In this document: positions 2,841-20,000 of the stretch, one piece after another
Numbering within the stretch: position 1 is the first letter of the stretch
How the letters are laid out: each line of letters begins with the position of its first letter
IMG/VR virus record: IMGVR_UViG_3300017963_000256
Reading direction: 5' to 3' (one strand)
Source: an uncultured virus (IMG/VR IMGVR_UViG_3300017963_000256)
Lineage: Duplodnaviria > Heunggongvirae > Uroviricota > Caudoviricetes
DNA: 20,000 nt
Made by a program: the position numbers and the translations under genes
The notes under the pieces: model-generated
Databases searched by the model: none
What the model saw: the letters and a program-made list of their open reading frames with translations, nothing else
What the model was told of the DNA's origin: nothing

Positions 2841-2858
2841 CTGTTTACTCCTTTTTGG

Positions 2859-3877: not shown

Positions 3878-4155
3878 TTATTTTCTCCCAACTTCTTAAC
3901 TAACTGATCCATCGCCTCTATAATAGGCATGGACTCCCATTTTCTTTTTTCCATGACTGCCAACATCTCACAAGGACCCAAACCGCCACGCTCTGCCAAC
4001 CGCTGTAATGTCTGACCGCCATGATTCCGTTTTGCCGTCTCTTCATCCAATAATTCCATCGAAACAGAATCCGGATACTTCCAGAGATCAGTCCGTAGTT
4101 TCCTTTTGTTAAAATAATCGATAAGAATTGGCATTTCTTTGTACATGTTTTTCAC
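3874..4155 (-). CDS. Hypothetical protein
   Basis: 93 aa containing AKRNHGGQTLQRLAERGGL; 4-nt overlaps on both sides. Confidence 0.75.
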   Translation of the reverse strand: MKNMYKEMPILIDYFNKRKLRTDLWKYPDSVSMELLDEETAKRNHGGQTLQRLAERGGLGPCEMLAVMEKRKWESMPIIEAMDQLVKKLGENK

Positions 4156-4460
4156 TTATATAATTTCAGTTCTTTGAAAAAAGGATCCCACTCTTTCCGT
4201 GGCTTAAACACCATAGCCACTTCCTGATTCCCCAAAGTGGATTCCGTAATAACCCTATGATCCTTTAAAAAAGATGCTCTCAAATACTCTGATTTATCGA
4301 CTTTGCATACAACCTTCTTGAACGACACTTCCATCCATTCCTGAACGTCCCTGTCATCAAACCATTCAAGATATGCAATCAGAGAGGCATGCGCTACTGC
4401 AACAATCGCATTCCCCACCGGAATATCATCTTTAACCAGAATATACATTTTCATCTTCAT
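4152..4460 (-). CDS. Peptidyl-tRNA hydrolase, PTH2 family
   Basis: KMYILVKDDIPVGNAIVAVAHASL...W...FKKVVCKV...ITE matches the PTH2 pattern (initial strand, AHA helix, W, KKVV strand); length about 100 aa fits the family. Confidence 0.75.
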   Translation of the reverse strand: MKMKMYILVKDDIPVGNAIVAVAHASLIAYLEWFDDRDVQEWMEVSFKKVVCKVDKSEYLRASFLKDHRVITESTLGNQEVAMVFKPRKEWDPFFKELKLYK

Positions 4461-5092
4461 CCCTTAATAATTTTATTTAATGATTCTTTCGTGTTCTTAA
4501 TCAAATCCGGTGACACGTTAGTGTAATGGTCCTTGCTGTACCAGTCCGTATCCACCAGAGGCAAAAATACCTCTGCCAATTTAACGGGGTTTTTCTGAAG
4601 TTTGTCGTCATCAGGATTGCTGAAATTATAATGATAATCATTGTCGCCATGATGAAAACGAACGAATTTCTTCAAAACATCCGCATCGAATTTGCCGTGA
4701 TTTTCAGGAATTTCTTCCCCATACAATCCGCCGCCAACACCCGTTACCATGGATTCCATAAAAGAATGGAAAAACATGGAAGCAAATCTTTCATAAATGC
4801 TTTCCTCTTTTTCCTCCACCTTTTCACGCGGAACTTCATGAATCCTGTCCGCTTCTTCCGCTTTCTTCGTGGAAACTTTCAGCAGTTCACGGTAACGTTT
4901 CTTCTCTTTGACAGGCGGATCATCCGAAGAGAATTCATCATTGAAATGTTCAACGCACATGAAAATACTACCAACACGAACCATGTATCTGTGAACCGAA
5001 TCACAAATGACACAACTCGCATTAGGAACAACATGAACACTTTTTCTTTCAATGTTCGCCAGTACGTCAATCCATTTCGAAAGTTCGCTCAT
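4457..5092 (-). CDS. Hypothetical protein with N-terminal CxxC/CxxH zinc-finger-like motif
   Basis: Start MSELSKW at 5092 after GGAGGAG; contains CVIC...CVEH. Confidence 0.75.
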   Translation of the reverse strand: MSELSKWIDVLANIERKSVHVVPNASCVICDSVHRYMVRVGSIFMCVEHFNDEFSSDDPPVKEKKRYRELLKVSTKKAEEADRIHEVPREKVEEKEESIYERFASMFFHSFMESMVTGVGGGLYGEEIPENHGKFDADVLKKFVRFHHGDNDYHYNFSNPDDDKLQKNPVKLAEVFLPLVDTDWYSKDHYTNVSPDLIKNTKESLNKIIKG

Positions 5093-5105
5093 TTCTCCTC
5101 CCAAA

Positions 5106-5429
5106 TCAGTTCATATAAGGATCAGCATCCTCTTCGCCAGTATCCATCTCATGTTCTTCGTATTCGCCAGATGCCATAGCTTTCAGCAGAGTGCAACATT
5201 CAAGACAGACAACAAAAGACACCTGTGAGTCGGGCAGCTTTAAGACAATTCTCCTGAACGAAAGAGGCTGAACAGCGGCTTGCAGATCCCCTTCCTGTTC
5301 TGGTCCATCCGGTTTCCTGATGATAATACTTTCCGAACCAACCTTACGTTTGCAAATTCTGCAATTAAACGACAGTTCACCTTCTTGCGCATCCTCTTTC
5401 GAAAAAGTCGTAAATTCCAATGTCCGCAT
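5106..5429 (-). CDS. Small zinc-ribbon-like protein
   Basis: Start MRTLEF after AAGGGG; CRIC...CLEC pairs; acidic tail. Confidence 0.7.
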   Translation of the reverse strand: MRTLEFTTFSKEDAQEGELSFNCRICKRKVGSESIIIRKPDGPEQEGDLQAAVQPLSFRRIVLKLPDSQVSFVVCLECCTLLKAMASGEYEEHEMDTGEEDADPYMN

Positions 5430-5439
5430 CACATTCCCC

Positions 5440-5946
5440 TTATCCAGTAAGAGTTTCAGAGTCATATGTCACTGTTCGCTTGAGAAGACGAAACCCAGTA
5501 ACATCTATTTTAGTACGCCTGCCAATGCATCCTTCGGGCTGTTCCTTTTCAAAAGCACGCGCCCGCTTCATCATAAATTCAAGCTGTTCATCCGTAGGAC
5601 GATCATAAAAACTGATACCTACAGACAAATAAGCAGGATATTTATCTTTTTTATCCGGACCTTCACCATCCCGATAATGTTTGCCCATCCCATCATTCCA
5701 CCAACCGGGAGTCGGTTCAATATGGACTATCGTATCATGCTCTGCGTCAGGATGACGATATGAATTGTTCAAAAGATCATCAAACCACTGAACAGGCTTC
5801 AGTTTCACACATTCGTCAGCGTATCCGAGGGTCCATTCATGGAAGTATTCTTCTTTTCTTCCTGTACACCATGCGCAAAGTTCACGCTCGAAATAACCCG
5901 CATACTGCTCTGTGTCAATGACGAAAATGTACGTTGAATAACCCAT
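5440..5946 (-). CDS. Hypothetical protein
   Basis: Start MGYSTYIFVIDT at 5946, after AAGGGA and the upstream stop; 168 aa. Confidence 0.8.
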   Translation of the reverse strand: MGYSTYIFVIDTEQYAGYFERELCAWCTGRKEEYFHEWTLGYADECVKLKPVQWFDDLLNNSYRHPDAEHDTIVHIEPTPGWWNDGMGKHYRDGEGPDKKDKYPAYLSVGISFYDRPTDEQLEFMMKRARAFEKEQPEGCIGRRTKIDVTGFRLLKRTVTYDSETLTG

Positions 5947-5954
5947 GTTTTCCC

Positions 5955-6083
5955 TTACGATGCCATTGCGCTGATTGCCGCAAAAATCCATTTCACAACA
6001 CTCATCACCATGATAATAATGAAAAGCCAAACCGGAATGTGTCCGGATAATGTCAATGCAAATGCTAAAAGACTGACTCTCAT
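5955..6083 (-). CDS. 42-aa hydrophobic membrane peptide, below the ORF-track cutoff
   Basis: AGGAGG SD, then ATG at 6083: MRVSLLAFALTLSGHIPVWLFIIIMVMSVVKWIFAAISAMAS*. It is the first gene after the promoter motif. Confidence 0.75.
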   Translation of the reverse strand: MRVSLLAFALTLSGHIPVWLFIIIMVMSVVKWIFAAISAMAS

Positions 6084-6096
6084 AATTTCCTCCTGC

Positions 6097-6124
6097 CTAC
6101 TATACGTAAAAAATCCCGAATCTC
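6097..6124 (-). promoter_or_regulatory. Putative promoter GAGATTCG-N9-ACGTATAGTAG
   Basis: Second copy of the 725-752 motif with identical spacing, at the head of the gene run spanning 6083 to about 930. Confidence 0.65.
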
Positions 6125-6155
6125 ATAGAAATTCTCAAAATATTCTTAAATCATG

Positions 6156-6425
6156 CTACCGCCGTCGCTTACTCCGTTTCGCCTTGAATTCACCTTTCCG
6201 ACCACGGATCCATTTCAGATACTTCGACATATCTGGCTGTTTCAAAAGATCTTCAAACGACATCAAAGCCAGTTCTTTCTCCGTATATAAGGCATGAACC
6301 TGACGATGACACGTCTTACACGCAGGAACAGTATCATCATTCTTCCCACCACGGGATTTTGGCTTTATGTGATGCTTACTAGTGGACTTAACATCACGAA
6401 AACAAATTCCACATTGCTTTTCCAT
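6156..6425 (-). CDS. Small HNH endonuclease-family protein
   Basis: CGIC...HHIKPKSRGG...CKTCHRQVH is a zinc-binding HNH signature. Confidence 0.85.
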   Translation of the reverse strand: MEKQCGICFRDVKSTSKHHIKPKSRGGKNDDTVPACKTCHRQVHALYTEKELALMSFEDLLKQPDMSKYLKWIRGRKGEFKAKRSKRRR

Positions 6426-6431
6426 AGCTTC

Positions 6432-6463
6432 CTATTATACGTAAAAGTGAGGAAATTAGACAA
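6432..6463 (-). promoter_or_regulatory. Sigma70-like promoter TTGTCT-N18-TATAAT sharing the TTACGTATAATAG core
   Basis: -35 box at 6463-6458, -10 box at 6439-6434, 8 nt before the HNH ATG. Confidence 0.6.
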
Positions 6464-6496
6464 AAAAAAATCCCCACGATCCGAAAATCGCGGGGA
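6462..6496 (-). terminator. Rho-independent terminator
   Basis: Minus strand reads TCCCCGCGATT-TTCG-GATCGTGGGGA followed by a run of 9 T. Confidence 0.85.
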
Positions 6497-6521
6497 ATTT
6501 TAATATTTTCTACGTCTTAAA

Positions 6522-6713
6522 TCAGACGTTGCTTTTTTCAATAATGGTCGTGTCGTCCAAATCACTACCCAAATCTTCTCCAAAAACACGACGGTTGTAA
6601 CCGCGCATCGCTACCGAAATCGCGATCTCATCAATGGCGTCCGCTTCCTTGCGGCAATCCATCTGTTCCAGTTTTACAGCCAAATTAGCCATTTCCCTCA
6701 GTACTTCTTTCAT
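6522..6713 (-). CDS. Small helical hypothetical protein, monocistronic between two terminators
   Basis: Start MKEVLREMANLAVKLEQMDCRKEADAIDEIA at 6713 with GGAGG upstream; 63 aa. Confidence 0.7.
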   Translation of the reverse strand: MKEVLREMANLAVKLEQMDCRKEADAIDEIAISVAMRGYNRRVFGEDLGSDLDDTTIIEKSNV

Positions 6714-6828
6714 CCTACTCAAGCCTCCAATTAAAACATCCACTAAAGTAAACGAACACGTCATCTGCATATTCCGATTTATAACGATTAAACCTCGTTC
6801 AGTGTTCATTAATTTTTTTTACTCCATC

Positions 6829-6856
6829 AAAAAACCCCGCATACAACGCAGGGTTT
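6829..6856 (-). terminator. Rho-independent terminator ending the gene run that carries the NWY tag
   Basis: Minus strand reads AAACCCTGCGT-TGT-ATGCGGGGTTT followed by TTT. Confidence 0.8.
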
Positions 6857-6887
6857 ATGCCTTCTCTGATATATGGTATACATTACA

Positions 6888-7571
6888 TCAGGTGATTCCT
6901 GCATGAAATTTGTCAAATAACCTCTCATAGATGTTGTTCCAATCCGCATCAGGATACTTCTCCTTAGACTTCTCGCACAGGAACTTCGCCGCCTCCTCAC
7001 CTTGTTTTTCGTCCAAATTATAGTCGGGGTAAAGCTTTTTCATTTCCCGCATAATATTTTCATCAAGAGCAATATCATCATAAATCTTCTGTGGTAACTC
7101 AAAATCAGGCTTCTCAGACTTCTCAATGTCTTCTACCGTTAGATTGGGTTCCCAATTCTCCAACATTCTTTCTATAATGTCCTGAGTTACACCATGAGTA
7201 TTCCGCTTTGCCAACTCCTCTGCATCAAATCTCCACGGCGTCTCCGCTTCACGAATCTCGATCTCATAACCATTCTTCTTCGCCATATCCACATATTCTT
7301 TGGCTTCCCATGCCCGAACATTCGTATTGTCAATCACAACGGGAGAAATTCCTTTTTCTACTGCGTCCTGTGCCCTCTGACGAGTCCAATCATGGGCTTC
7401 CTGCATCTTGTCAGGAATAAACTCGTATTCCCCATCCTGTTCCCAAAAATCATCCGTACTCAATATAACGCCGCCTTCTCCAAGTTCTTTTGCCAACGTG
7501 GACTTCCCTGATCCAGAAACACCACGCATAATAATCATCTTTTTCTCTTGGGCGACTTTATACCAATTCAT
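6888..7571 (-). CDS. P-loop kinase (AAA_33 / N4BP2-like polynucleotide kinase family) with MNWYKVA tag
   Basis: Walker A motif MRGVSGSGKST, plus LSTDD, VVIDNTN and LAKRNTHGV, typical of N4BP2-like kinases; extra helical C-terminal region. Confidence 0.85.
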   Translation of the reverse strand: MNWYKVAQEKKMIIMRGVSGSGKSTLAKELGEGGVILSTDDFWEQDGEYEFIPDKMQEAHDWTRQRAQDAVEKGISPVVIDNTNVRAWEAKEYVDMAKKNGYEIEIREAETPWRFDAEELAKRNTHGVTQDIIERMLENWEPNLTVEDIEKSEKPDFELPQKIYDDIALDENIMREMKKLYPDYNLDEKQGEEAAKFLCEKSKEKYPDADWNNIYERLFDKFHAGIT

Positions 7572-8290
7572 TAACCTACTCCTATCTTAACGTATCCATT
7601 CTCAGTAGCCCAATCACAAACCGACTGTAAGCGATCCAAATATGATAAAGCTTGATCGTCCTGCACCAGCATTACATGAACATTGCCGCCAGACATTTCT
7701 TTTCTTTCCCTATTCTCTTCCTGTAATTTGTTTTTCAAAGTACTTCTGGCAAGATCTATCTTTTGAGAAATCTGCCATGTGTCAAACGAATGTTGATCAA
7801 GATTTAACCCTAATAAATCCTCAAATAAAAAACGCATATTGGCATTACTTAAATGCATCTTAGGAGGATTGTTTATTTCCTGAGAAGGCAATTCAATAAT
7901 AGGAAATCTTACCACATTAGAATCAAAAATACCACTTTTCTCATAAATAAGATCACCAAATTTAACACCTTTTTCACCTAATATATACTTCAACATAGAT
8001 ACAATCTTCGGTAGTTTGCTCTCTGGCAAACCTACTATATAAAAATTCATCACTCCGCTAGGTTTATCCCAACTGTAACCATCAGGGGCCAAAACTTCCA
8101 TAGGACGATTTTGCTTCCAATGTTCCATCTCTTCATTTGTCAAAATCTTACTAAGCAAAGTAAAAAAATCATGACTAAGAGCAAAACAAAGATGTAAAAT
8201 GTTATCCACTTCCTGATCATATGTATGATCTACTACATACACGTCCATTGAGGCAAATTTGCAAGTTTTTGCGACTTTGTACCAATTCAT
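7571..8290 (-). CDS. Hypothetical protein with MNWYKVA tag
   Basis: 239 aa; ATGA overlap upstream and TAATG overlap downstream. Confidence 0.85.
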   Translation of the reverse strand: MNWYKVAKTCKFASMDVYVVDHTYDQEVDNILHLCFALSHDFFTLLSKILTNEEMEHWKQNRPMEVLAPDGYSWDKPSGVMNFYIVGLPESKLPKIVSMLKYILGEKGVKFGDLIYEKSGIFDSNVVRFPIIELPSQEINNPPKMHLSNANMRFLFEDLLGLNLDQHSFDTWQISQKIDLARSTLKNKLQEENRERKEMSGGNVHVMLVQDDQALSYLDRLQSVCDWATENGYVKIGVG

Positions 8291-8814
8291 TTTTGGCTTT
8301 CATTCAAATGCGGAAATGGAACGGAAGGAACATCCTTCCCCAAAAACTTACATAACTTTTTCCAACCATCTCCTTCTTGTACATCAAAATAAAGCACATC
8401 GCGGGAAGAAAAATAAGCCATAATCCCCTGATAATGCCTTATAAATGTTGACCTCCAAGCTTTCTTGTCATAATGAAACATCCCATGAATACGAAAACGA
8501 TTCTCTAAAATCTGAGCCTTAGTATCTATCCGCATTCCCTTGTTTTTTCGATCAGAAGATGCAGACCAGTCATCTATATCCCTGATCGTTACTATAAACT
8601 TTGCATTCGGATAAAGATAATCCAGAAACTTGTAACGACTTGCCACATATAAATCATTACAAAAATCATGTTTTTCAATCTCTTCAAGAGATCGAGGAGC
8701 ATGAATGGCACTGTAACCAAGAATCTGCATCGCTCTGCATAAACTTGTTGTGCCCGTCCTTCCGATACCAATATCAAAGATCTTACAATCAGGACGTTGT
8801 CCTAGTTCCGTCAC
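8287..8814 (-). CDS. Sulfotransferase-like protein (Sulfotransfer_4 type)
   Basis: IFDIGIGRTGTTSLCRAMQILGY, YPNAKFIVTIRD..W..S and GDGWKKLCKFLG..VP..PFPHLN are family hallmarks. Confidence 0.85.
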   Translation of the reverse strand: MTELGQRPDCKIFDIGIGRTGTTSLCRAMQILGYSAIHAPRSLEEIEKHDFCNDLYVASRYKFLDYLYPNAKFIVTIRDIDDWSASSDRKNKGMRIDTKAQILENRFRIHGMFHYDKKAWRSTFIRHYQGIMAYFSSRDVLYFDVQEGDGWKKLCKFLGKDVPSVPFPHLNESQK

Positions 8815-9089
8815 GTTAATCCGCCTTCAATCATGCCCTTCAAATGATACTCAATGGCATCCCATTCACCATTGCTCTCCGCGCCATATTTGTCCTTCAT
8901 TGAACCCATGATCATTCGGACTGCAGCACGAGTATGTTTGAAATTGTGGTTGTACTCCGGATATTCCTCATATGCCTGTCCCCATGCCTCAGAATCAACT
9001 TCTTTACGGTAAATCCTGAAAGCATCTGCACGGCTGCCAGAATAACCAACCATCTCAATCAAATTCTCTATTTCTTGGTTCGTGAACAT
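8811..9089 (-). CDS. Hypothetical protein
   Basis: 92 aa; tiles tightly between its neighbours. Confidence 0.75.
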   Translation of the reverse strand: MFTNQEIENLIEMVGYSGSRADAFRIYRKEVDSEAWGQAYEEYPEYNHNFKHTRAAVRMIMGSMKDKYGAESNGEWDAIEYHLKGMIEGGLT

Positions 9090-9090
9090 C

Positions 9091-9423
9091 TTAGCCCAAT
9101 AGATTCTTGATCGCTGTTAAATGTTGACCAATCTGCTGGCACGTTGCCTGATCTGCATTAGATTCACGCATCTCTTCATAAAGATTACGCATCTCTGAAA
9201 TGCACTGAATCGGAGATGTGAAATATCCAGCCGACTCTGGTACTTCTTCAACAACCAATCCAGCAGGACGCCCTTCAGGAACAATCACCTGATCACCCGG
9301 CATGTCTTTGTATTTCGGATCAATCGCTGCTTCTTTGTTTTCCTCTGAAGGAATAGGGCGAACTTTACCATCGCCACCCAACAGATCTTTCAATTCTCCT
9401 GCTTGAATCTTGAAATCAGACAT
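9091..9423 (-). CDS. Hypothetical protein
   Basis: Start MSDFKIQ at 9423 after GGAG; 110 aa. Confidence 0.8.
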   Translation of the reverse strand: MSDFKIQAGELKDLLGGDGKVRPIPSEENKEAAIDPKYKDMPGDQVIVPEGRPAGLVVEEVPESAGYFTSPIQCISEMRNLYEEMRESNADQATCQQIGQHLTAIKNLLG

Positions 9424-9436
9424 TTTGTTTCTCCAA

Positions 9437-9862
9437 TTAAACAAAGGCACCCGGAAACATTCCTTTAATATCTTGATACATTTTGGTATCGGATAAATCT
9501 ATTTCTTCACTTTCTACCATTGCCTTAAAGATGTTCTTAAAAGCTTGTTTCAATTCTGCTTCACTCACTGCTGGACCGCCCCCGTCGATACTTTCAATAA
9601 TGGGCGTGGCTTCCGCAATCGCTTCAGAAAGTTTCTGATCATCTATAAGATCTGTCCCACGAATTGTCCCAATATAATTGTATATCAATTCATAAGCATT
9701 TAAAATATGCTCCATGCTATCGGGACCCTCCATAGTATCAAGAGACTTCATCAATTTATCTTGCTCCTCCGGACTCAGTCCATATCCTTCACCAGCCCCC
9801 GGAACATTTTCCTTAGGGAAGTAAGGAAGAGTTTCTTCTGCTGCTTTTTTGTACCAATTCAT
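9437..9862 (-). CDS. Acidic hypothetical protein with MNWYKKA tag
   Basis: 141 aa; SD AAAGGAG; ATGA overlap. Confidence 0.85.
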   Translation of the reverse strand: MNWYKKAAEETLPYFPKENVPGAGEGYGLSPEEQDKLMKSLDTMEGPDSMEHILNAYELIYNYIGTIRGTDLIDDQKLSEAIAEATPIIESIDGGGPAVSEAELKQAFKNIFKAMVESEEIDLSDTKMYQDIKGMFPGAFV

Positions 9863-10266
9863 GCTGGAACTCCTTTTTCTATTCTCGCCGGTCCTTCTGG
9901 AACTTCCGGTTCTGGTTCAGGTTGTGGTTCAGGTTCGGGCTGTAAAGCCTTCTGACGAGCCTGTTCGTACATGCTCCCCAATAACGGGGATAATTGATCC
10001 TGATAGAAATCGTTCAATTCCATCTCAAACGTATTCAAATTGTTTGCGATAGCATTTACATTCGTAACGTCATTCAACTCTTCAGACCCTATCTTCTCTG
10101 CTCCTGATTTAATCTCTTTGGCTGTACTCGAAACACGTTTACTCGTCATTTCGAATACTTCCAACGATTTCTCAAGTTTATTGGTTGCCTCCTCAAGAGA
10201 AGAAACTCTCTCATCTGGAGCATCACGAAACGCTTCTTTTTTTATCGCAAATCTATACCAGTTCAT
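9859..10266 (-). CDS. Coiled-coil protein with MNWYRFA tag and Pro-Glu-rich C-terminus
   Basis: Start moved to ATG 10266 (GAGG SD, ATGA overlap with the psd stop); tail QPEPEPQPEPEPEVPEGP. Confidence 0.8.
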   Translation of the reverse strand: MNWYRFAIKKEAFRDAPDERVSSLEEATNKLEKSLEVFEMTSKRVSSTAKEIKSGAEKIGSEELNDVTNVNAIANNLNTFEMELNDFYQDQLSPLLGSMYEQARQKALQPEPEPQPEPEPEVPEGPARIEKGVPA

Positions 10267-11339
10267 GGCGTCACCTCTCCAACACACATGCCACAGTTGT
10301 AATGAACGCCCGGTGCCGCCGTGATCGTCACATTGCTCTCTTCCTGAAACAACATGATAATGTCACTGCCGCCGAACATGAAATAACCGAATTCTTCGCC
10401 CTTATTCAAATAGCTTCCAACAACTGCCGTCATGTTGACAGAAGATACTTGAGCCATTCCAATAGGCAGAACAGCCACAAGACCAATAGGGCTATCAAAT
10501 ACGATGAGTCCTCTCGTTTGGGTGAATTCATATCCCGCTCCATCAGGTGCAGTAAACTCACCATCCTTAATCTGCACGTCCAAATACACATTCTGCTGAA
10601 TGGCACGGCACTCCATTACCGTACCGCGTACCGGTGCCCTAAAACGATGGTAGTCATTAGGACCCAGAAACGCATGCATAAATGTGCCACCCACAAACTT
10701 CTCACGATATGGACTTCCTTCCAGCAAATCCAAAATCTTATACTTATGAGTCAGTTTAATGGTTACTTCATTCTCCAAATCAATAGGAAATTTCCTCATG
10801 AATGTACTATCGGCGGGGGAAGTAATAATATTGTCTTCAAACATACCAGCAACGGGACGTAATCCGGGTTTAATTTCGCGGGCAAAAAATTGATTAAACG
10901 TCAACCAACCAGATGGATTATGCATGTAATCATCTACTCTAAAATCCGGATCCCGTAAAAAAGTATCAATCCCAGATGCCGATGCGGTCGTATTTAAATA
11001 ACTTCCCCACTGATTTGCAAAATCACGCATCCATGTATTAAAATCTTTATGCTTCTGTAATTCCCTGCCAGAAGGTTGATCCAATAACCAATAAAACTTA
11101 CACAACATATAAAGAACTTCTTTAGGAACATCCTCACGAGGAGTCCAGTGAACCATCCGTTCAAGATAAACAAAATATCCTTTTTCGCCTTCTAATCCTT
11201 CCGGAAAATCTTTGGCACCTTTTAATCCAGCCTTCATCGCTTTGACTTTGGCTTCCGTAATGGAATCCACCAGCATCTGCACCCAACCGTCTTGTTCATG
11301 TACTTGTAATAATGCCTGCAGTTCTTGAACAATATCCAT
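10263..11339 (-). CDS. psd: Phosphatidylserine decarboxylase proenzyme
   Basis: TFNQFFAR, ITSPADS, FLGPNDYHRFRAPV and KGEEFGYFMFGGSDII, including the GG/S self-cleavage site that generates the pyruvoyl cofactor. Confidence 0.9.
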   Translation of the reverse strand: MDIVQELQALLQVHEQDGWVQMLVDSITEAKVKAMKAGLKGAKDFPEGLEGEKGYFVYLERMVHWTPREDVPKEVLYMLCKFYWLLDQPSGRELQKHKDFNTWMRDFANQWGSYLNTTASASGIDTFLRDPDFRVDDYMHNPSGWLTFNQFFAREIKPGLRPVAGMFEDNIITSPADSTFMRKFPIDLENEVTIKLTHKYKILDLLEGSPYREKFVGGTFMHAFLGPNDYHRFRAPVRGTVMECRAIQQNVYLDVQIKDGEFTAPDGAGYEFTQTRGLIVFDSPIGLVAVLPIGMAQVSSVNMTAVVGSYLNKGEEFGYFMFGGSDIIMLFQEESNVTITAAPGVHYNCGMCVGEVTP

Positions 11340-11341
11340 TC

Positions 11342-11782
11342 TTACTCTCCAAGTCGTTGTTTAAGCTGCTTTTTGAGGGTTGTTTTGCTGATATGAAAAG
11401 GATTGTCAGTTGATGCTTCTTTTTCTTCGTCCTCAGATTCATCTTCCTCAGACTCTTCTTCCGGTTCTTCGGCTTTAAAGTCCTCAGATTCATCGGACAT
11501 TTCTTCTACTTCTTTGCGACCTTCTTCAATCGCTTCTTTCTCTTCCGGATCCAATTCATCTAACAACTGTTGAAATTCGCCTTTATGTACCTGTTCTTCG
11601 CGGGCGATATCCAATAATACTTTTTTTACTTTTTCGTTGTCAGATCTTTCGGCAACCAGCGTATATAAATGGGTGGCCTCTTCTTCCGCAGCCAGCCCCT
11701 GCCGTAATGCCTGAATGAGTTCGACTTCGCTTAAAGGACCATCGTCGTCCATACCGGGAAAAGGATTAATGAATTGTGCCAT
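11342..11782 (-). CDS. Ferritin-like (rubrerythrin-type di-iron) protein with acidic linker and basic tail
   Basis: ELIQALRQGLAAEEEATHLY...DIAREEQVHKGEF contains E, Y and ExxH ligand motifs. Confidence 0.85.
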   Translation of the reverse strand: MAQFINPFPGMDDDGPLSEVELIQALRQGLAAEEEATHLYTLVAERSDNEKVKKVLLDIAREEQVHKGEFQQLLDELDPEEKEAIEEGRKEVEEMSDESEDFKAEEPEEESEEDESEDEEKEASTDNPFHISKTTLKKQLKQRLGE

Positions 11783-11791
11783 GATTTTTCC

Positions 11792-12307
11792 TCATTTTGT
11801 GTACCAATACTGAGTTTCGAGTTTATATGGATGATATTCCTCACCTTCAGTCATTACGGCATATGGAATATCGTTTATTTTGTCAACCAATCTCTTCAAA
11901 TTCGCCATATGATTCTCAATGCCTTTAGGAGATCCTTCAGCCTTTAACACTCTTTTATCCTCAAGTAACACAACACGAATCAATGCGCCTTGATCATAAA
12001 TAGCGGTCATAAACTTATCGCTCAGACTATCTTCAGTCATATCATAAACATGCCATCCGGCACCAGTTTCCTTCACTTCCTGCGCTACGCTTTCTCGAAG
12101 ATCCTCCAACGTATCCTTATGGCTTTCGAGCATCGCCACCAAATCAGATGGATAGTCATTAGGATTCTTCTCAATCTCTTCTTTCAAAGCCTCCAGATGA
12201 TTCCAATAATCCGTTACCAACAACTTGTTCGCAGGAGTTAACCAACCGGCACCCTTCTCCAGAAACTTCTCAAAGTCATCTTTACCGGCTTTTTTATACC
12301 AATTCAT
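11792..12307 (-). CDS. Hypothetical protein with MNWYKKA tag
   Basis: 171 aa; contains GWLTP...H; ATGA overlap. Confidence 0.85.
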   Translation of the reverse strand: MNWYKKAGKDDFEKFLEKGAGWLTPANKLLVTDYWNHLEALKEEIEKNPNDYPSDLVAMLESHKDTLEDLRESVAQEVKETGAGWHVYDMTEDSLSDKFMTAIYDQGALIRVVLLEDKRVLKAEGSPKGIENHMANLKRLVDKINDIPYAVMTEGEEYHPYKLETQYWYTK

Positions 12308-12585
12308 TCCAACCCAACCCTCGATTCGTCAGTTTCCAAAGATGCCAAGACAGGGACCTCATCAACAATACGAACAGGCCGAACCGAAAGGTGACCTTCA
12401 TATGGTCTTGTCGCCAGATGCGCCCAATCTTCCTCTTCAAAGATCTCCGCACCCGCCAAATCAGATAAAGTGGGTAAAGTTGCCGATTTATTCTTTTCGT
12501 AACCTTTTCCAAGATAGGCAGCGCCATCTTCAAACTCGACGACCCAACCATCTATTTCTGCTTCTGCTTTTTTGTACCAGTTCAT
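12304..12585 (-). CDS. Hypothetical protein with MNWYKKA tag
   Basis: Start moved to ATG 12585, 1 nt after the upstream TGA; 93 aa. Confidence 0.8.
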   Translation of the reverse strand: MNWYKKAEAEIDGWVVEFEDGAAYLGKGYEKNKSATLPTLSDLAGAEIFEEEDWAHLATRPYEGHLSVRPVRIVDEVPVLASLETDESRVGLE

Positions 12586-12586
12586 A

Positions 12587-13135
12587 TCAATTCTTAGCCT
12601 CATAACCAAAAGACATCTCAATATTGATCTTATCGCCAGCATCTTCTGTCTTCACAGAGACCGATTCAAAGTCTAGTTCATATTCAATATATTCGTGAGC
12701 ATCCGGTGTTGTCCCGTTCATTTCCAAAATACGACTTTTTCGTGAATCACCTAAAAGATCCATATCTTCAGCAACATCAATACGAAGCCACTCCATGATC
12801 CCTTCTCTATCCTGTTGTGGAATAAGGTCAGCGGCTGTCATCTGCATCAAAGCCGGATGGTCAAACGGAATCCATGACTTCACCACAACCTCACCCTCGC
12901 ATACTCCATAATTATAAGAAGGAAGAGGAAAGCCACCAGCGCCAGAAGGATAGTCCCCCGGATCATCCCATGTGTCCATGTAACAGTCTACTGTATTCTT
13001 TTCGACAACAGCATTCTGGACAATGGTATCAGCGATTTCCCTAAAAAACTTATCATCACCCATAGCCGCGTTCTTGCGAAGAGCTTTCCGCAGGTCGCTC
13101 GAACTCATTTTGAATTCTGAATTATCGGTATTCAT
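12587..13135 (-). CDS. Acidic hypothetical protein
   Basis: 182 aa; GGAGG SD; contains WDDPGDYPSGAGGFPLPSY. Confidence 0.8.
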   Translation of the reverse strand: MNTDNSEFKMSSSDLRKALRKNAAMGDDKFFREIADTIVQNAVVEKNTVDCYMDTWDDPGDYPSGAGGFPLPSYNYGVCEGEVVVKSWIPFDHPALMQMTAADLIPQQDREGIMEWLRIDVAEDMDLLGDSRKSRILEMNGTTPDAHEYIEYELDFESVSVKTEDAGDKINIEMSFGYEAKN

Positions 13136-13428
13136 TTTGGAAACCTCCCAGATTTTTTCTTTAATGACGAAATAGGAACTCGTCGCTCCAAATTCATATA
13201 TCCTTTAACCGGATTGTAACTTAAAATTAAACTTCCTTCCTCATGCATCGCTTCATCACCACATAAAGAAGGTTCCGCTTTTACTTCTCCAGTCTTCAAA
13301 TGTCTCCGCAATAAATATCTAATTACTTCTTCCTCACCCTTCTTCTCTAAAATGACAAAAGCCTTTGCCGCAGAAGGACCCTCCACGTGTGCCAAAGGCT
13401 GATACGCACTTTTTTGTTGCTGTGCCAT
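13132..13428 (-). CDS. Hypothetical protein, tandem paralogue of 13474-13779; the original start may be 13453 with a frameshifted NWY leader
   Basis: AYQPLAHVEGP...GEEEVIRYLL...GDE...ILSYNPVKGY...RVP aligns with the neighbouring protein. Confidence 0.8.
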   Translation of the reverse strand: MAQQQKSAYQPLAHVEGPSAAKAFVILEKKGEEEVIRYLLRRHLKTGEVKAEPSLCGDEAMHEEGSLILSYNPVKGYMNLERRVPISSLKKKSGRFPK

Positions 13429-13473
13429 TACTTTGCTGTACCAAGTTCGTCATTTTAACCAAATACCTGTCCC

Positions 13474-13779
13474 TTAAACGACCTCTGCCGCAGGAACCCT
13501 CTCTGTCAGGCTTGCATATCCTTGTGCCGGATTGTAAGCCAAAATATAATTATCTCGTTCGTAGATGAATTCGTCCCCACTGAAAGGTGGCGAACTAAGA
13601 CTGCCCTCGTCACGATGTACATTCAACATGTAATCAATGACATCTTCCTCACCTTGATTGTCCATGATCTTTTTGACTTCTGCTATCGCCGGTCCATCGA
13701 CATAGGCAATCTGACGATAACCCATTGAAGCTGTTTTGTTTATGATCGTTGTTAATGATGCTTTTTTGTACCAATTCAT
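13474..13779 (-). CDS. Hypothetical protein with MNWYKKA tag, paralogue of 13132-13428
   Basis: GYRQIAYVDGP...GEEDVIDYML...GDE...ILAYNPAQGY...RVP; AAAGGA upstream. Confidence 0.85.
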   Translation of the reverse strand: MNWYKKASLTTIINKTASMGYRQIAYVDGPAIAEVKKIMDNQGEEDVIDYMLNVHRDEGSLSSPPFSGDEFIYERDNYILAYNPAQGYASLTERVPAAEVV

Positions 13780-13841
13780 CAGACTTCCTTTTCAATCTGG
13801 TCAATAACTTTTATTTATTAATTTTCGACCAAAATCCTTTT

Positions 13842-16800
13842 TTATAATATTTTAAACAAAACAGCATATTTAGGGTCTTCATCCTCTTCCATTATCTGTC
13901 CAATAAAGTCTAAACCATACTTATCTAAGCGGTTAGATCTCGGAGAACCATCTGGATTCATCAATAATCTGTATGAATCTGACAACATTTCAGCCGCCAA
14001 AAACTCATATCCTTTTTCCCTAAGTTGTTTTAGGAAATCATTTATCATTAAACTTAAATTGCGGCGATATTGTTTTTGAACTGCCAAATTGGAAACATAC
14101 ATCACCTTTCCTTGCTGAATTTTCTTAAAAAATTCTTCTAAAAATTCTTCAAAATTCTCTGCATAAGCAGGATTCATAAACTCAATTTCATAGGGATCAA
14201 AATCCTCTAAATTATCCGTCTCTATAAAATCATAACCATAAAGATAACCTTGAAGTTCGTCATTATCCATGAGACCAGTCCCTGTGCTTCCGGGCTGAAT
14301 CATGTCATTATATAAATATGCTTCTGGATCCGCATGGTCATCCTCATAATGTTCAAAATTGATTCTATCCAATTCTTCCATTCTACGAGAATGCTCTCTG
14401 TTTCGTCTGACTGCTTCTGGAAGGTCAATCAAACTGACAGCATACTTTGCCATCTGATACCAATTCTTTGCCACTTTTACAACCTCCTTTGAATCCTGAA
14501 GATACAAATCTTGATACCCTTCTTCTAAAAAAGGATACTTGTCATCATTGTCCCAATCAGGAACTTTTTCACCTAATCTATCAACTCCAAGACTATCATA
14601 ACCCGTACCAATCAAAACACTGCGCCCAGTAGCCTCTTTATACTTTTGGGCAAATTTCTTATATGCTTGTTGAATCTTTTGTTTTGCTGTTTGATTTTTA
14701 CTCATCTTCTTACCCTTCCCCTCGAATGGTCTATCCTGAAAAACATCGGCAAAAATGTTCTTCTTACCACGCTCCCCTCCTTCAAGTTCATCTGATTTTC
14801 TTTTCAATACACTTGAAAATTCAACATTATCCAAAACCAAAGATTCCCCATCTTCTGTCAACCACATCCAACTCTGTGCCTGAAATTTACCGTCCTTATA
14901 AACCGTCAAAAAGCCAGATTTAGGATTCACATATCCTTCAATCATCGAACTTTCTGAAGCATCCTCAAACTTCTGACAACAACCAGAATATGCAAGTTCA
15001 CCTAACACAAGCCCTAAAGGATCTGTTTTATCAAGACTCGCAAACTCATACGCATCACCATCTACATCTACACTAATCTTAATTGGATCAATTTCACTCT
15101 TGCCAAAATTTTCATGATTTATAATGTTGCCAACTCCATCCAAAGCCTCATAAAAGTTTGCGTCTGAGTAAAAAACAATTTGTTCCATCCCCTTTATGGA
15201 GAAATCTTTTTGTTCTTCAGTGGTATATGTACTACGACCTTTTTCTATATCATCCAAAAATTTATTATAATCTGCGTACTTGTGTTTATCTAATTGAACA
15301 GAAAAACGATGCAAAGCTGTTGTGTTAATCGGAATCTTCACATTGTTTTTAATCTCATTACGCATTCTCTTAATAGCTGTCCAACGTTTCTGATTCTCTT
15401 CACGATTCTCACTCTTCGGATACTTTTTATCTATCTCTTCCATCCCTTCTTTTTCTAATTGGGAATATTGACTTTCAAGATATTGCGGAATAATAGAAGC
15501 ATAATATATGATCGGATTTTCACCACCAAGGTCTGTGCTTTTCGAAGAAGAAAGCAAATATGATCCTATATATTTAGAAACATTTTTATCTTGTAATGCT
15601 TCATCCATTTTTTTACCGAAAGTATTAAACTTTTGAAAAACCGTTAAAATTACATTAATATCTTTGGTAAGATTCAACTGATTTATCACTATATTGGAAA
15701 TCAAACGATCCAAGATAGGAGAGAAAGAAAGATTATGATCTTTCTTAAAAATTTCATAAAGCTTATTTAGAGATCCCATCAACTCTTTGTAATCATAATG
15801 TCTCTTTCCAGTGTATTCAGAAAGATCATTCGCTGCATTAAAACGCCTACCTATCTCGTTTCCATTGATTCTCTCCAAATTAGAAAAATCAATTTCCAAC
15901 TTATCTAAATCAACTTCTCCAGAAAGATAAAGTTCCCGAATGGTAGGAGCCAAACTGTCAACTAATGCAAAATCTTCTGCCAAAGTTTTCTTGGCTTCAA
16001 GAGAAAAATCATATTTTTTCTGAAGTCTTTTAAACGTTTTTTTTGCGTCATACTCATATGAATAATAAGCAGTCTGCTTGAGAGTGTTATACACCTTCTC
16101 TCTATGATTTTTATAAATGTGAGGGAAGAGACCATAAGTCCATAAAATACTAGCTCTAGGAATTATTGTGGATGGAAATTTCTTTAAGATAAGATCAACC
16201 ATATCCGGTTGCTTCGTGCTAACAGCCCTCTCCATAGATTCTTTAAGATCTCCTTCTGACTTTTTTAAAATCTCATTTACTTTTTCTAAATTCTTTTCTT
16301 TTATAGCCAATTCAAGAACAGCATTACTGTCATATTCGCTGAAACGATCTACACGATCCAGAAACAATTTTAAAAACTCCAAATCACCAGATTTAACGGC
16401 TGTTTCTACAGCATATCTGTTTATCTCTTTTTTATAAAACGGAAGCATAGCCCGCGCCAATTCAGGATTCCCCGATTTAGCCAAATGCTGCAGACCACTA
16501 TCTCCCAATTGAGGATTCTCTACATTCTTTGCATACTCCATGAAACCATCTAATCCGCTGTAATAAAAGATTGAATCAGGATTCAGCCTTTCTTTGCCAT
16601 ATGGAAACAATAACTTTGCAACTTCGAGATTACTTGTATTAGAAACAGTTCCCCAACACCGATCCTGTTTTGAATCAAGACCATGTTCAAGCAATGCTTT
16701 AACCATCTCAGGACTTCTAAGCAAAATCTCATCACATAAAACATGAGGATGTGTCCCTTTTGTGGCGTTCAAAACTCTTTTATATATTTCCGGTCCAAAG

Positions 16801-18044
16801 AAAGGAGCGTCCAACTGCGCCTCTGTATATGAACCAGTATATTGTTTTTCTTCTATAAGATCTAACACCATCTCTACAATTTCAGGCGATTTATCTAACC
16901 TTGATCGTGAGACTGCCAGATGCAAAATCTTAGGATTCAATGAGGAAAATCCATTCTGAATTAAAGCCTCCATAACCTCCGCTGCGCCTTTAGAGCGCCC
17001 CATCGCCAGACTCAATAAATTTCCGTCTTCTGTTTCTATTTTTTGACCAATCTTTCCAAAATAATTTACAAGACGAACACATACATCTGTGGAAGAACCC
17101 CAAAATGCTTTCTTCAACAAAGCATAAGGATTCGGAATAGTAATTCCATTCTGACCAAAATAATTCAATAAAACATCTACGATCTCTTCGTTTCGATTTT
17201 CAATAGCAAAATTGAGAGATCTGGCAGGTATGCCCTTATCGGTTGTAACACCACGCTCCAAAGCCTTATAAACCACTTCTGAATTGTTTGTTTTAACAGC
17301 CTCTATCAAAGTCTGAGGTTCTTCTTTTGGAACTACCTGCCTAAATAACTGAGCTATTTCCGTATGTCCTTCTATGATAGCCAATGCTATAGCGTCTGGA
17401 GTCGGTATCATACCATACGACAAAAGAAGCTTTACTAATTCGATATTATCTGTCATCAGGGCCATTTTCATCACATTTGGATTAACTGTAGCGCCCATGT
17501 CCAAAAGTAAACGAATGATATCTATCCTAACATTATCATCATTAATTACTCCAGTAAGATGTAGTTGTGCATCAGCTTTATATCCTGCGTCTTTAAGTTT
17601 CGAAACAATCTCATAACCTTTGCTATGTCTGGTAAGATCATCCCAACTAGATGCTCCCACTGGAGCGCCAATACTTATCGCATAATCCAAAAAACCTTTA
17701 TCAGATCTATAATTTCGAATCGCATCTGCCATTAAATATTGATTCGGTTTAACACCATTTTGAAGAAGAAAACTTACAATATCACGCTTACCTTTGCGAA
17801 CGGCACGTGTCAAAGCATTCGACAACTCTTGAACCGTTATTCTTGAAATCCCCTTTGGATGATCAAACAACATTTGGGCTATTTCAAATTGCCCTTCCTC
17901 TAACGCCGGGTCGAAATAATAATACTCAACTTGCTTCAGATTTGATATGAACTCACGGGCAGCATTCAAATCACCCTGAGACACAATCTGCTCAAAGTCA
18001 GTAGGCGGATTCTCCGGCATTTGTGCCGTTACATACCAATTCAT
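13842..18044 (-). CDS. 1400-aa multidomain protein: MNWYVTA tag, ankyrin-like repeats, helical region, 'GCCQ' domain, internal NWY motif, GNAT-like C-terminal domain
   Basis: Ankyrin-like units ALTRAVRKGKRDIVSFLLQNG, AIALAIIEGHTEIAQLF and SLNFAIENRNEEIVDVLL. The C-terminal MYVSNLAVQKQYRR resembles GNAT motif A. Confidence 0.85.
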   Translation of the reverse strand: MNWYVTAQMPENPPTDFEQIVSQGDLNAAREFISNLKQVEYYYFDPALEEGQFEIAQMLFDHPKGISRITVQELSNALTRAVRKGKRDIVSFLLQNGVKPNQYLMADAIRNYRSDKGFLDYAISIGAPVGASSWDDLTRHSKGYEIVSKLKDAGYKADAQLHLTGVINDDNVRIDIIRLLLDMGATVNPNVMKMALMTDNIELVKLLLSYGMIPTPDAIALAIIEGHTEIAQLFRQVVPKEEPQTLIEAVKTNNSEVVYKALERGVTTDKGIPARSLNFAIENRNEEIVDVLLNYFGQNGITIPNPYALLKKAFWGSSTDVCVRLVNYFGKIGQKIETEDGNLLSLAMGRSKGAAEVMEALIQNGFSSLNPKILHLAVSRSRLDKSPEIVEMVLDLIEEKQYTGSYTEAQLDAPFFGPEIYKRVLNATKGTHPHVLCDEILLRSPEMVKALLEHGLDSKQDRCWGTVSNTSNLEVAKLLFPYGKERLNPDSIFYYSGLDGFMEYAKNVENPQLGDSGLQHLAKSGNPELARAMLPFYKKEINRYAVETAVKSGDLEFLKLFLDRVDRFSEYDSNAVLELAIKEKNLEKVNEILKKSEGDLKESMERAVSTKQPDMVDLILKKFPSTIIPRASILWTYGLFPHIYKNHREKVYNTLKQTAYYSYEYDAKKTFKRLQKKYDFSLEAKKTLAEDFALVDSLAPTIRELYLSGEVDLDKLEIDFSNLERINGNEIGRRFNAANDLSEYTGKRHYDYKELMGSLNKLYEIFKKDHNLSFSPILDRLISNIVINQLNLTKDINVILTVFQKFNTFGKKMDEALQDKNVSKYIGSYLLSSSKSTDLGGENPIIYYASIIPQYLESQYSQLEKEGMEEIDKKYPKSENREENQKRWTAIKRMRNEIKNNVKIPINTTALHRFSVQLDKHKYADYNKFLDDIEKGRSTYTTEEQKDFSIKGMEQIVFYSDANFYEALDGVGNIINHENFGKSEIDPIKISVDVDGDAYEFASLDKTDPLGLVLGELAYSGCCQKFEDASESSMIEGYVNPKSGFLTVYKDGKFQAQSWMWLTEDGESLVLDNVEFSSVLKRKSDELEGGERGKKNIFADVFQDRPFEGKGKKMSKNQTAKQKIQQAYKKFAQKYKEATGRSVLIGTGYDSLGVDRLGEKVPDWDNDDKYPFLEEGYQDLYLQDSKEVVKVAKNWYQMAKYAVSLIDLPEAVRRNREHSRRMEELDRINFEHYEDDHADPEAYLYNDMIQPGSTGTGLMDNDELQGYLYGYDFIETDNLEDFDPYEIEFMNPAYAENFEEFLEEFFKKIQQGKVMYVSNLAVQKQYRRNLSLMINDFLKQLREKGYEFLAAEMLSDSYRLLMNPDGSPRSNRLDKYGLDFIGQIMEEDEDPKYAVLFKIL
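14427..14466. repeat. 40-bp exact direct repeat, copy 1, encoding NWYQMAKYAVSLI
   Basis: AATCAAACTGACAGCATACTTTGCCATCTGATACCAATTC is identical to 18062-18101; the flanking bases differ on both sides. Confidence 0.95.
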
Positions 18045-19999
18045 GTTTTACATCCTTTGGAAATCAAACTGACAGCATACTTTGCCATCTGATACCAATT
18101 CGCAACTCTGACAACCTTCGTCGCATCTGTATAAGGATATCCTTCCTCTGGATCCTGATATTCTTCATATTCCTCGTCATCTTCATTGTCATAGTCATCA
18201 CAAATCTCATTCTCAGGAAGAATTGGATAACTATTATAAAAATTCCATTTCTTAACTTCTTCGCCAATCGTCTTGACCCCTAAATCATCATAACCAGTTC
18301 CAATAAAAACATTCAAACCAGTTTTCTCTTTATATATTTGGGCAAACTTCTTGTAAGCCTGTTGAATCGAAACCTTGGCAGTGTTTGGTTTGACTTCCCT
18401 CTTATTATCTTCTGGTTTGTCTTGAAAAATATCTGAAAATAAATTACCTCTTAAATAAGGACTCTCATCTTCAAACATAGGTGAAAATTCAACATTGTCC
18501 AAAACCAATGTCTTATTATCTTCTGTCATCCAAATCCAACTCTGGGCAACAAAATTCCCATCCAAATAAACAGTCAAAAATCCAGATTTTGGATTCACAA
18601 ACCCTTCTATCATCGAATCTTCAGATTCATCATCAAATTTCTGACAACACCCAGAAAATGACTGTTCTCCCAACACCAACCCCAACGGATCCTTCTTATC
18701 AAGGATCTTAAATGTATATGTTTTCCCATCTTGTTCTACGTTAGTCTCTCCCGGCGCGATCTCTCCAACGCCAAAATTCTCATGTTTAATGATTCCTTTA
18801 TAAATCTTATTCGCCTTTTCGTAATATTCAAGATCAACTGTATTATCTAAAAGATAATTCATCCCTTTGTTAAAAAATTCAACTTGCTCATTGTCATCGA
18901 ATTTAAATTCAGCAATGTCTTCAAGATTAAGTTCTGATGTACTAATAATATCTTCCATGTTCTTTTCATGTATTTTGTAATTCTCATCAGTTCTCTTTTT
19001 GGTATATAACATCAAAGCATTCTTGGTAACTGGAATCTTGACGTTATTTTTGATTTCATTCCGTAACCTCTTAATCGCCTTCCACCGCTGTACGTTATCT
19101 TTCTTCTCTTCGCGCAAAGGAAACTTTTCATCAATCTCTTTCATTCCTTCTTCTTGTAACTCATACTGTTTATCTTCAATATACATAGGAATATAGCTGG
19201 CAAAAAGAAAAAGATTGTTATGTTTTTCCACCATATTAGAATCTTTGGAATTAGAAAGAAGAAAATCTTTCACAATCTTTTTGAAATCTTTATCTTCCAA
19301 TGCTTTAATCAGGCTTTTGTGACTACTTTGAAAAGTACTCAAAATAGGAACAAGATCGCCACTCATCCTAGTAAGCTTGAACTGATTCATCAAAACACTC
19401 ATTACAATCTTGTCAACAGAAGCAGGAATATTTAAACTATGCTCCTTCTTGAATATCTTGTAAATGCGGTGTATGTTTTCATAGACCTCTTTAGAACTAT
19501 GATGAACCTTCCCAGTATACTCACCAAGATCCTCTGAAACTCTCACGATGTTGGACAACTCCCCAACTTCCTCTTCATTAAGCTCTTCAATAACAGGAAT
19601 CTCAAATTTCATCCTGTCCAAATCTATCTTGCCTTCCAAGTATAACCTTCTCAATGTTTGCGGAAAATTCAATGCCGTTATGGGATCCGTTTTTATGATT
19701 CTTTCCACAATAGGAGACATGTCAAATTGGGTTTCTATATCTTTCCCTACGCCCAACGCACGATTGCTTTCGGAGAATATCTTCATGAAATAATCAGGAT
19801 TTAGATTATAGATATGTCTTGAAAGTTTCCCTCTTTGAATAAGTCTGGAAGTATCGTCTGTAATAAACTTAGGATCATTCAAACTAATAATATAATCCAA
19901 AAGAACAGTGTTTGAACCTGAGCCACCATATGATGCAAAACTATTTAAAACACTATCCAAAGCATTCGAAGGTAACTCAAACCCTATGCTCTCTAAAAA
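18041..19999 (-). CDS. Large paralogue of the 1400-aa protein (helical region + GCCQ domain); partial, start lies beyond the right edge
   Basis: The frame stays open upstream of 19960 (FLESIGFELPSNALDSVL). It shares RW.AIKR.RNEIKNNVKIP, DPLGLVLGE...SGCCQKF, SMIEG.VNPKSGFLTVY, AQSW.W and LVLDNVEFS with 13842-18044. Confidence 0.85.
   Translation of the reverse strand, partial: FLESIGFELPSNALDSVLNSFASYGGSGSNTVLLDYIISLNDPKFITDDTSRLIQRGKLSRHIYNLNPDYFMKIFSESNRALGVGKDIETQFDMSPIVERIIKTDPITALNFPQTLRRLYLEGKIDLDRMKFEIPVIEELNEEEVGELSNIVRVSEDLGEYTGKVHHSSKEVYENIHRIYKIFKKEHSLNIPASVDKIVMSVLMNQFKLTRMSGDLVPILSTFQSSHKSLIKALEDKDFKKIVKDFLLSNSKDSNMVEKHNNLFLFASYIPMYIEDKQYELQEEGMKEIDEKFPLREEKKDNVQRWKAIKRLRNEIKNNVKIPVTKNALMLYTKKRTDENYKIHEKNMEDIISTSELNLEDIAEFKFDDNEQVEFFNKGMNYLLDNTVDLEYYEKANKIYKGIIKHENFGVGEIAPGETNVEQDGKTYTFKILDKKDPLGLVLGEQSFSGCCQKFDDESEDSMIEGFVNPKSGFLTVYLDGNFVAQSWIWMTEDNKTLVLDNVEFSPMFEDESPYLRGNLFSDIFQDKPEDNKREVKPNTAKVSIQQAYKKFAQIYKEKTGLNVFIGTGYDDLGVKTIGEEVKKWNFYNSYPILPENEICDDYDNEDDEEYEEYQDPEEGYPYTDATKVVRVANWYQMAKYAVSLISKGCKT
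18062..18101. repeat. 40-bp exact direct repeat, copy 2
   Basis: Identical to 14427-14466. Confidence 0.95.
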
Positions 20000-20000
20000 T

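Follow-up and report, generated by a model that had tools for sequence, protein, structure and literature searches.

The window studied here, a stretch of 20,000 nucleotides from an uncultured virus of the class Caudoviricetes (IMG/VR record IMGVR_UViG_3300017963_000256), contains eight genes, all on the minus strand, that open with the same short peptide, M-N-W-Y-x-x-A. We propose, with a probability of about 0.7, that this tag is a capsid-loading propeptide, i.e. an address plus a cut site, comparable to the capsid-targeting sequence (CTS) of phage T4 and predicted to be cut after its alanine. A sequence-only reading of the window had suggested a virion address label cleaved after Ala. This suggestion is supported by enrichment of K-x-A in the head protease-scaffold, by the assemblin/gp21 fold predicted for the protease, by tags that end at domain boundaries, by the apparent addition of the tag to a glucose-6-phosphate dehydrogenase (G6PD) and by agreement between tag type and head type. 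Packaging and cleavage themselves stay at the level of prediction from these sequence tests.

All eight starts recognised in that reading were confirmed in coordinates, peptides and strand. The window belongs to a contig of 74,345 bases with 97 called genes, and a scan of the latter revealed a ninth copy outside the window, at contig 49937 (coordinates are those of the window unless marked as contig). An N-W-Y-x-x-A start is present in 9 of the 97 contig genes vs. 1e-4 to 2e-4 expected, two of the nine having been set by hand where the gene caller preferred an upstream ATG. When residues 2-20 were shuffled 10,000 times, the count was 0 in 9,997 shuffles and 1, the maximum, in three. The ATG at 12585 is an inner start of a longer open reading frame (ORF), yet it lies one base past the stop of the upstream gene. 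Two of the eight window tags lack Lys at position 5, having Arg (10266) or Val (18044) instead.

Conservation concerns the peptide and not the DNA, as had been claimed. Degenerate codons of the tag vary synonymously (Asn AAT 6, AAC 3; Tyr TAC 5, TAT 4; Ala GCA 5, GCC 2, GCG 1, GCT 1). Both synonymous codons are in use across 108 natural tags, a set skewed to K5/A7 by the search pattern, in which Ala/Ser is usually followed by Q, K, S or N. Mean nucleotide identity among the copies amounts to 0.78 in the 21-nt tag, compared with 0.28 upstream and 0.31 downstream, and flanking 21-mers are at background level. No common hexamer stood out as an upstream promoter motif in five genomes; several tagged starts overlap the upstream stop as ATGA. 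The bodies of the tagged proteins are unrelated to each other, in line with the earlier claim (best all-against-all BLAST E 0.12).

The source of the contig appears, from its head genes, to be a giant phage related to phage G (Lysinibacillus phage G, Donellivirus gee). Terminase, portal, a protease-scaffold of 1885 aa, decoration protein and capsid are encoded on it. The capsid gene matches phrog_2522 (E 1e-72) and is 58% identical to phage G gp27, the next-closest capsids being those of Tunturi 5 (34%) and cluster C-type actinophages (25-26%). G-type capsid, portal, protease and terminase, the features of phage-G-like megaphages, were all found. Near-complete tag-bearing relatives measure 461-548 kb, the contig itself being a 74-kb fragment.

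K-x-A sites in the head protease-scaffold

The 1885-aa protein (contig 2326-7983) contains a head maturation protease domain (phrog_18299, E 4.6e-20) of the assemblin/gp21 type, which we take to be clan SH. The model of this domain (predicted local distance difference test 87.8) best matches human cytomegalovirus (HCMV) protease and T4 gp21, with E 1.5e-4 to 6e-4. The five structure matches that reach E<=0.001 all belong to HCMV protease or T4 gp21, with template modelling scores of 0.45-0.49; as modelled, the domain has an assemblin/gp21 fold. His59 and Ser110, presumably the catalytic residues by motif position, are invariant in 32/32 rows. Relatives of the protease were collected by tblastn on fetched loci; a single-sequence scan for such relatives found none, and a PDB sequence search with the protease returned nothing useful. 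Also present in the protein are (E/D)VITEKQL repeats, six in all, and several zinc ribbons of CxxC type, one of which is inserted in the protease domain; close to the C-terminus, a block is duplicated.

Site statistics were drawn from 44 distinct protease or protease-scaffold sequences; because these are related to each other, the counts do not represent independent events. K-x-A occurs 1031 times vs. 473.5 expected and is in excess in 42 of the 44 sequences. KA, K-x-x-A and A-x-K match expectation (495, 462 and 493, respectively), R-x-A is likewise raised (342 vs. 184) and K-x-E is under-represented (387 vs. 542). Preferences around scaffold K-x-A sites, namely L/I/M/V at P5 (0.40 vs. 0.21) and S/Q/G at P1' (0.42 vs. 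0.18), are unlike those of K-x-A in other genes. In 17 of the 27 rows where a conserved domain motif was found, K/R-x-A lies exactly 21 residues past it, a spacing that resembles a release site. Mycobacteriophage I3 and Tunturi 5 show a K-x-A excess too, the former in its putative protease-scaffold (18 vs. 8.1), the latter in the gene that follows the protease (16 vs. 5.6); tail genes of these two phages show no such excess.

From this enrichment of sites we infer K-x-A specificity for the putative head protease. Ala at P1 fits the protease fold, because herpesvirus assemblin sites end in Ala: sections of PMC4498786 give pseudorabies virus assemblin sites as YLQA-T and VQA-S and describe protease-scaffold fusions. 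K-versus-R co-variation of scaffold and leader gave any match in 13 of 40 records only. A 100/100 branch of the protease tree separates R-L leaders (6 labelled rows) from W-Y/I-I leaders (14 labelled rows), a further 13 rows being unlabelled; this split reflects kinship and not co-evolution.

Leader variants, cargo and portability

Scanning IMG/VR for MNWYK-x-A retrieved 126 stretches from 49 of 64 parts, many of them chance matches in short or internal frames; many contigs carry several tagged genes. Among 48 hand-picked loci, 42 records were searchable and a G-type capsid was detected in 20 (one weak and broken), including five of seven near-complete ones. Two complete records without G-type capsid were rejected as tag carriers because the pattern had hit internal Met codons. 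A search of 185,579 prokaryote genomes with an extended version of the pattern produced 10 stretches, with real tagged genes on a single 19-kb contig of a Halanaerobium metagenome-assembled genome (CAZYRX010000043.1, L345/L346; four tagged genes in 3 kb). The tag is therefore a feature of this phage group and not of cells. The Halanaerobium contig is probably a binned phage fragment and gives a weak hint at the host group.

W-Y is found near the start of 18 genes in one relative (G002, 461 kb) and of 13 in another (G003, 488 kb), a few of them by chance. A third relative (G001, 476 kb) uses mainly M-K-I/L-I/V-K/R-x-A/S, present on 12 genes, most of which adjoin the capsid gene. The label had been described as genome-wide, and this stood only in part: the K-x-A/S end is shared, and MNWY is just one of the interchangeable fronts (MKII-K-x-A/S, MKRL-x-K-x-A/S). 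In the 485-kb relative LR745208 (L342), a longer common leader of ~30 residues, also ending in K-E-A, was noted at 18710 and 26337.

Phage G carries the leader M-K-R-L-x-K-x-A/S on 30 of its 713 called genes, compared with a mean of 1.4 and a maximum of 7 after shuffling, among them 8 of 11 members of the "gp336 multigene family" (Supplementary Table 1, PMC12484599). It is present on 0 of 30 control genes (tail, replication, terminase, capsid, decoration). Leader genes gp9, 10, 13, 17 and 20 lie inside the head module, in nine genes of which K-x-A was counted 50 times vs. 23 (93 vs. 83 in controls). Mass spectrometry has reportedly been carried out on phage G virions by Gonzalez et al. Neither the tag nor phage G processing at K-x-A is described in the literature searched; Gonzalez et al. 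2020 (J Mol Biol) lay outside the reach of this search and may contain a prior report of the cut site.

Tagged proteins are diverse. Pfam families were assigned to 17 of 62 tagged proteins of relatives: kinase, ART-PolyVal, GNAT, cREC, PcfJ, UvrD helicase, CCA/poly(A) polymerase with HD, G6PD, HATPase, HTH, lysozyme and DUF5661. Matches at E 0.01 were obtained for 9 of the 30 phage G leader proteins, with domains including PARP-like, ParB-like, WYL, SLOG, ferritin, GNAT and nucleoside deoxyribosyltransferase-like ones. Tail or shell proteins are absent among domain-assigned tagged and leader proteins. Conflict enzymes in phage polyvalent proteins are argued by Iyer et al. to be packaged and injected (sections of PMC5512222).

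Of 120 relatives of the window kinase, 118 have a readable N-terminus, and 65 of these possess a W-Y front. Such fronts stop one to a few residues short of the first strand, the very point at which tag-free homologues, which do exist, begin. The remaining relatives have MKI-type, helical-hairpin or Glu-ending fronts. Since the kinase tree, built in quick mode, has many open forks, no order of gain and loss is claimed for the tag. For G6PD (L014:10001-11320), 8 of 120 matches are tagged, all of them within a phage group 75-99% identical, and the other 112 (43-49% identical) are untagged; the tag was apparently added to a captured G6PD. Finally, three paralogues of the contig (13474-13779, 13132-13428 and contig 49937-50233) have three fronts, each ending in K-x-A before a common body. 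The second matches the 13474-13779 protein at E 2.5e-19 and the third, with an MKII-type front, more weakly at 9e-4. Addition to G6PD and front swaps on kinase and paralogues would thus show evolutionary portability of the tag, not its sufficiency.

Tagged genes and their neighbours

Tagged genes and related features of the window are listed in Table 1. For 10 window proteins, 7 of them tagged, no homologues were found in the fetched loci.

Table 1. Positions of tagged genes and related features in the window
Feature	Position	Strand	Remarks
Tagged P-loop kinase (AAA_33, polynucleotide-kinase-like), 227 aa	6888..7571	-	Tag MNWYKVA 7551..7571, ending just ahead of first beta strand
Tagged ORFan, 239 aa	7571..8290	-	Tag 8270-8290; second K-F-A site four residues on
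Tagged acidic ORFan, 141 aa	9437..9862	-	Tag 9842-9862
Tagged coiled-coil protein, 135 aa	9859..10266	-	Tag 10246-10266 with R-F-A; then K-E-A site
Tagged ORFan, 171 aa	11792..12307	-	Tag 12287-12307
Tagged ORFan, 93 aa	12304..12585	-	Tag 12565-12585
Paralogue of 13474-13779 protein	13132..13428	-	Other short front, ends K-S-A
Tagged small protein, 101 aa	13474..13779	-	Tag 13759-13779; second K-T-A site ahead of body
Tagged 1400-aa protein	13842..18044	-	Ankyrin repeats, unnamed middle domain, C-terminal GNAT-like domain; tag 18024-18044 MNWYVTA, position 5 non-basic
Possible nested GNAT-like tagged product, 210 aa	13842..14474	-	AAGGAGGT; in-frame GTG at 14474; internal tag 14439-14465
5'-truncated paralogue of 1400-aa protein	18041..20000	-	42.5% over 574 aa; internal NWYQMAKYA near its end

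Besides the N-terminal tags, two in-frame internal copies, NWYQMAKYA, were found on the minus strand (14439-14465 and 18074-18100). The first sits at the boundary ahead of the GNAT-like C-terminal domain of the 1400-aa ankyrin protein, and in the upstream paralogue of this protein the stop follows 19 residues after the second. The contig has 9 occurrences of AAGGAGG, of which 4 precede a start codon, so that a separate 210-aa product is suggestive only.

Untagged genes are interspersed among the tagged ones, such as those of a phosphatidylserine decarboxylase (10263-11339, minus strand) and a sulfotransferase domain protein (8287-8730, minus strand). An encapsulin-cargo-type ferritin-like protein (11342-11782, minus strand; EncB family E 4.6e-22, below cut-off) has an acidic tail with K-E-A-S and is without N-terminal tag despite tagged neighbours. 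A small HNH endonuclease is encoded downstream of the tagged cluster (6156-6425, minus strand). A helical-hairpin motif (LA..L...G...EAD.LD-like) occurs at 6522-6809 (minus strand), contig 19380-20894 and contig 8003-8836, and also in the fronts of kinase relatives P0072 and P0090; it is possibly a longer leader class.

Elsewhere on the contig, the portal (contig 12637-14763) is fused to a C-terminal DUF559/very-short-patch endonuclease domain and has K-x-A sites within its N-terminal 35 residues. The motif Y-W-K-x-x-[YW]-P-x-x-Y-[VI]-D is common to three head-region proteins (contig 17300-18121, 18569-19153 and 28367-28654), C-terminal in two of them, and is a candidate capsid- or portal-binding element.

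Proposed mechanism, alternatives and known systems

According to our proposal, otherwise unrelated enzymes would enter the prohead of a giant phage of the phage-G-like type by means of the tag. The hydrophobic front of the tag (W-Y in the window genes, L-I in those of phage G and I-I in G001) may serve as the address, possibly because the protease-scaffold core binds it as an optimal ligand. The head-maturation protease would cut the tag after K-x-A, leaving enzymes of native length, and these would likely be injected together with DNA. If this holds, the tagged G6PD of this phage group is a virion-delivered metabolic enzyme.

Tag type was compared with head type for 50 of 80 kinase loci submitted to genome search, which gave 48 records, two W-Y rows being assigned by eye. 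W-Y kinase fronts are accompanied by a G-type capsid in 2 of 5 records and by Gp23 in 0 of 5. Glu-ending fronts (F-x-x-W/F-x-E, I-K-x-x-L-R-E) have Gp23 matches in 8 of 25 and a G-type capsid in 0 of 25. As most records are fragments, the agreement is consistent rather than strong. Three records with W-Y-front kinases are without any head genes and therefore neither support nor contradict the link. In five Gp23-type records, the W-Y pattern had 3 matches vs. 6 for the reversed control.

Several observations weigh against capsid loading. Tagged genes lie ~60 kb away from the capsid gene on the contig, the tag at 18044 has Val and not Lys/Arg at P3, the only one of the eight in the window to do so, and tag-using G002 carries a kinase without clear tag. 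Fragments without capsid gene make up 3/5 (W-Y) and 17/25 (Glu-ending) of the records compared for head type; several Gp23 matches are partial and the records are related. It is enrichment alone that points to K-x-A as the cut site. When scaffold and protease genes were searched for the motif, its K-x-A end proved enriched but its front did not (W/Y at P5/P4 of scaffold sites 0.06 vs. 0.05); the W-Y front is therefore not simply the protease consensus. Among putative cargo, no Pfam family was assigned to 45 of the 62 tagged proteins, and G6PD or HTH proteins are not typical injected material. Ferritin-like gp346 of phage G, which carries the leader, is named in sections of PMC12484599 as detected in phage G particles. 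This supports loading weakly, because the particle proteome is broad, spanning 104 of 668 ORFs including many replication enzymes (same source).

Instead of an address, the tag might be a cut site only: the head protease would remove the peptide, cargo would enter by charge or DNA binding and the W-Y front would merely aid cutting. Leader families have just hydrophobic-hydrophobic-K-x-A/S in common, which is near the scaffold site consensus. However, a peptide of 7 residues could mask very little, the W-Y that leaders almost invariably carry shows no enrichment at scaffold sites, and a removable stub on captured G6PD makes little sense unless it is an address; we regard this account as rather unlikely. 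Less probable still is a non-virion address or timer, i.e. a degron or sorting signal that a protease or adaptor of phage or host (e.g. ClpXP), or a phage compartment, would recognise inside infected cells. Phage G is indeed annotated with ClpP and ClpX, tagged genes are scattered and many of the enzymes could act in cytoplasm, but K-x-A is concentrated in protease-scaffold and head-module proteins and not in tail or replication proteins, five phage G leader genes lie within the head module, and tag type follows head type.

Short N-terminal signals serve in export in other systems, and one tag has no basic P3 residue; the tag might thus remain uncut and be read at the portal or tail during infection, as an ejection or secretion signal. 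This is highly improbable, given that the tag ends in a scaffold-enriched motif and that longer variants put K-x-A/S just ahead of the body. A DNA- or RNA-level element without peptide role (translation enhancer, promoter start, mobile cassette), to which the preference for A at the fourth base in ATGA overlaps of several starts would conform, has very little chance and is largely refuted by synonymous variation at every degenerate codon, the two codons seen across the 108 tags, unrelated flanks, the lack of a common upstream hexamer in five genomes and internal in-frame copies at domain boundaries.

The capsid-loading propeptide can be extended to a modular head-cargo system, in which the leader would be the address and at the same time the site cut by an assemblin-like protease specific for Ala, lineage-specific fronts (W-Y, I-I, R-L) would be interchangeable and dozens of enzymes would be pre-loaded and injected. 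We hold this extension at even odds. If true, ADP-ribosyltransferases, acetyltransferases, captured G6PD and CCA-adding enzyme would all be among the cargo, ~30 such cargos would be expected in phage G, and its leader could serve to load proteins into the largest cultured phage capsid. It would also provide a sequence rule predicting which of hundreds of unknown megaphage genes are delivered at infection and a testable role for ~30 uncharacterised genes of cultivated phage G. The novel elements of this work are the statistics on protease sites, the swapping of tags between phage families and phage G as test system.

The tag system can be compared with several known ones. Phage polyvalent proteins (Iyer et al. 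2017) share ART-PolyVal, GNAT and kinase cargo domains and are likewise argued to be virion-delivered. They unite many conflict domains in one protein and are often MPTase-linked, whereas the genes described here are mostly small and single-domain, each with its own tag; by their predicted domains, the tagged proteins do not show the many fused conflict domains that define polyvalent proteins. Herpesvirus assemblin (UL26) is the best fold match and shares the N-terminal protease followed by scaffold, sites ending in Ala and a conserved site just after the protease domain. It has two main sites and no tagged cargo, compared with dozens of K-x-A sites and many tagged genes here.

In the giant phages phiKZ and SPN3US, head proteins are processed by a prohead protease, as is predicted here from sequence. 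Their propeptides, cut by gp175/gp245, have been proposed to target proteins to the head (sections of PMC5694885); they mostly exceed 100 residues and are cut at A/S-x-E, whereas the present tags have 7-8 residues and a K-x-A/S end. Phage G itself shares the capsid (58% identical), a protease homologue (gp19), head-module K-x-A excess and a sister leader on 30 genes. It differs in the R-L front in place of W-Y, in its protease, which is a separate 300-aa gene, and in its position as sister clade in the protease tree.

The closest analogy is offered by T4. Its internal proteins join the core via a CTS of 10-20 residues, which gp21 removes after Glu and which also packages foreign proteins; T4 and phiKZ-type proteases alike cut after Glu (sections of PMC5694885). 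Common to the T4 CTS (IPI-III, Alt) and the present tag are a short N-terminal peptide on unrelated proteins, an end motif dense in the scaffold and a protease of like fold. In contrast to T4, the phage-G-type capsid replaces Gp23, the protease is fused to a 1,600-aa scaffold with Zn-ribbon insert, and ~10-30 genes per genome are tagged, including metabolic enzymes. In the tests run, the tag system thus seems to work like the T4 CTS without being a member of it, because its sequence, its predicted P1 (Ala, not Glu) and its capsid lineage are different. If this is true, the T4 CTS principle extends to an unrelated head lineage with different protease specificity.

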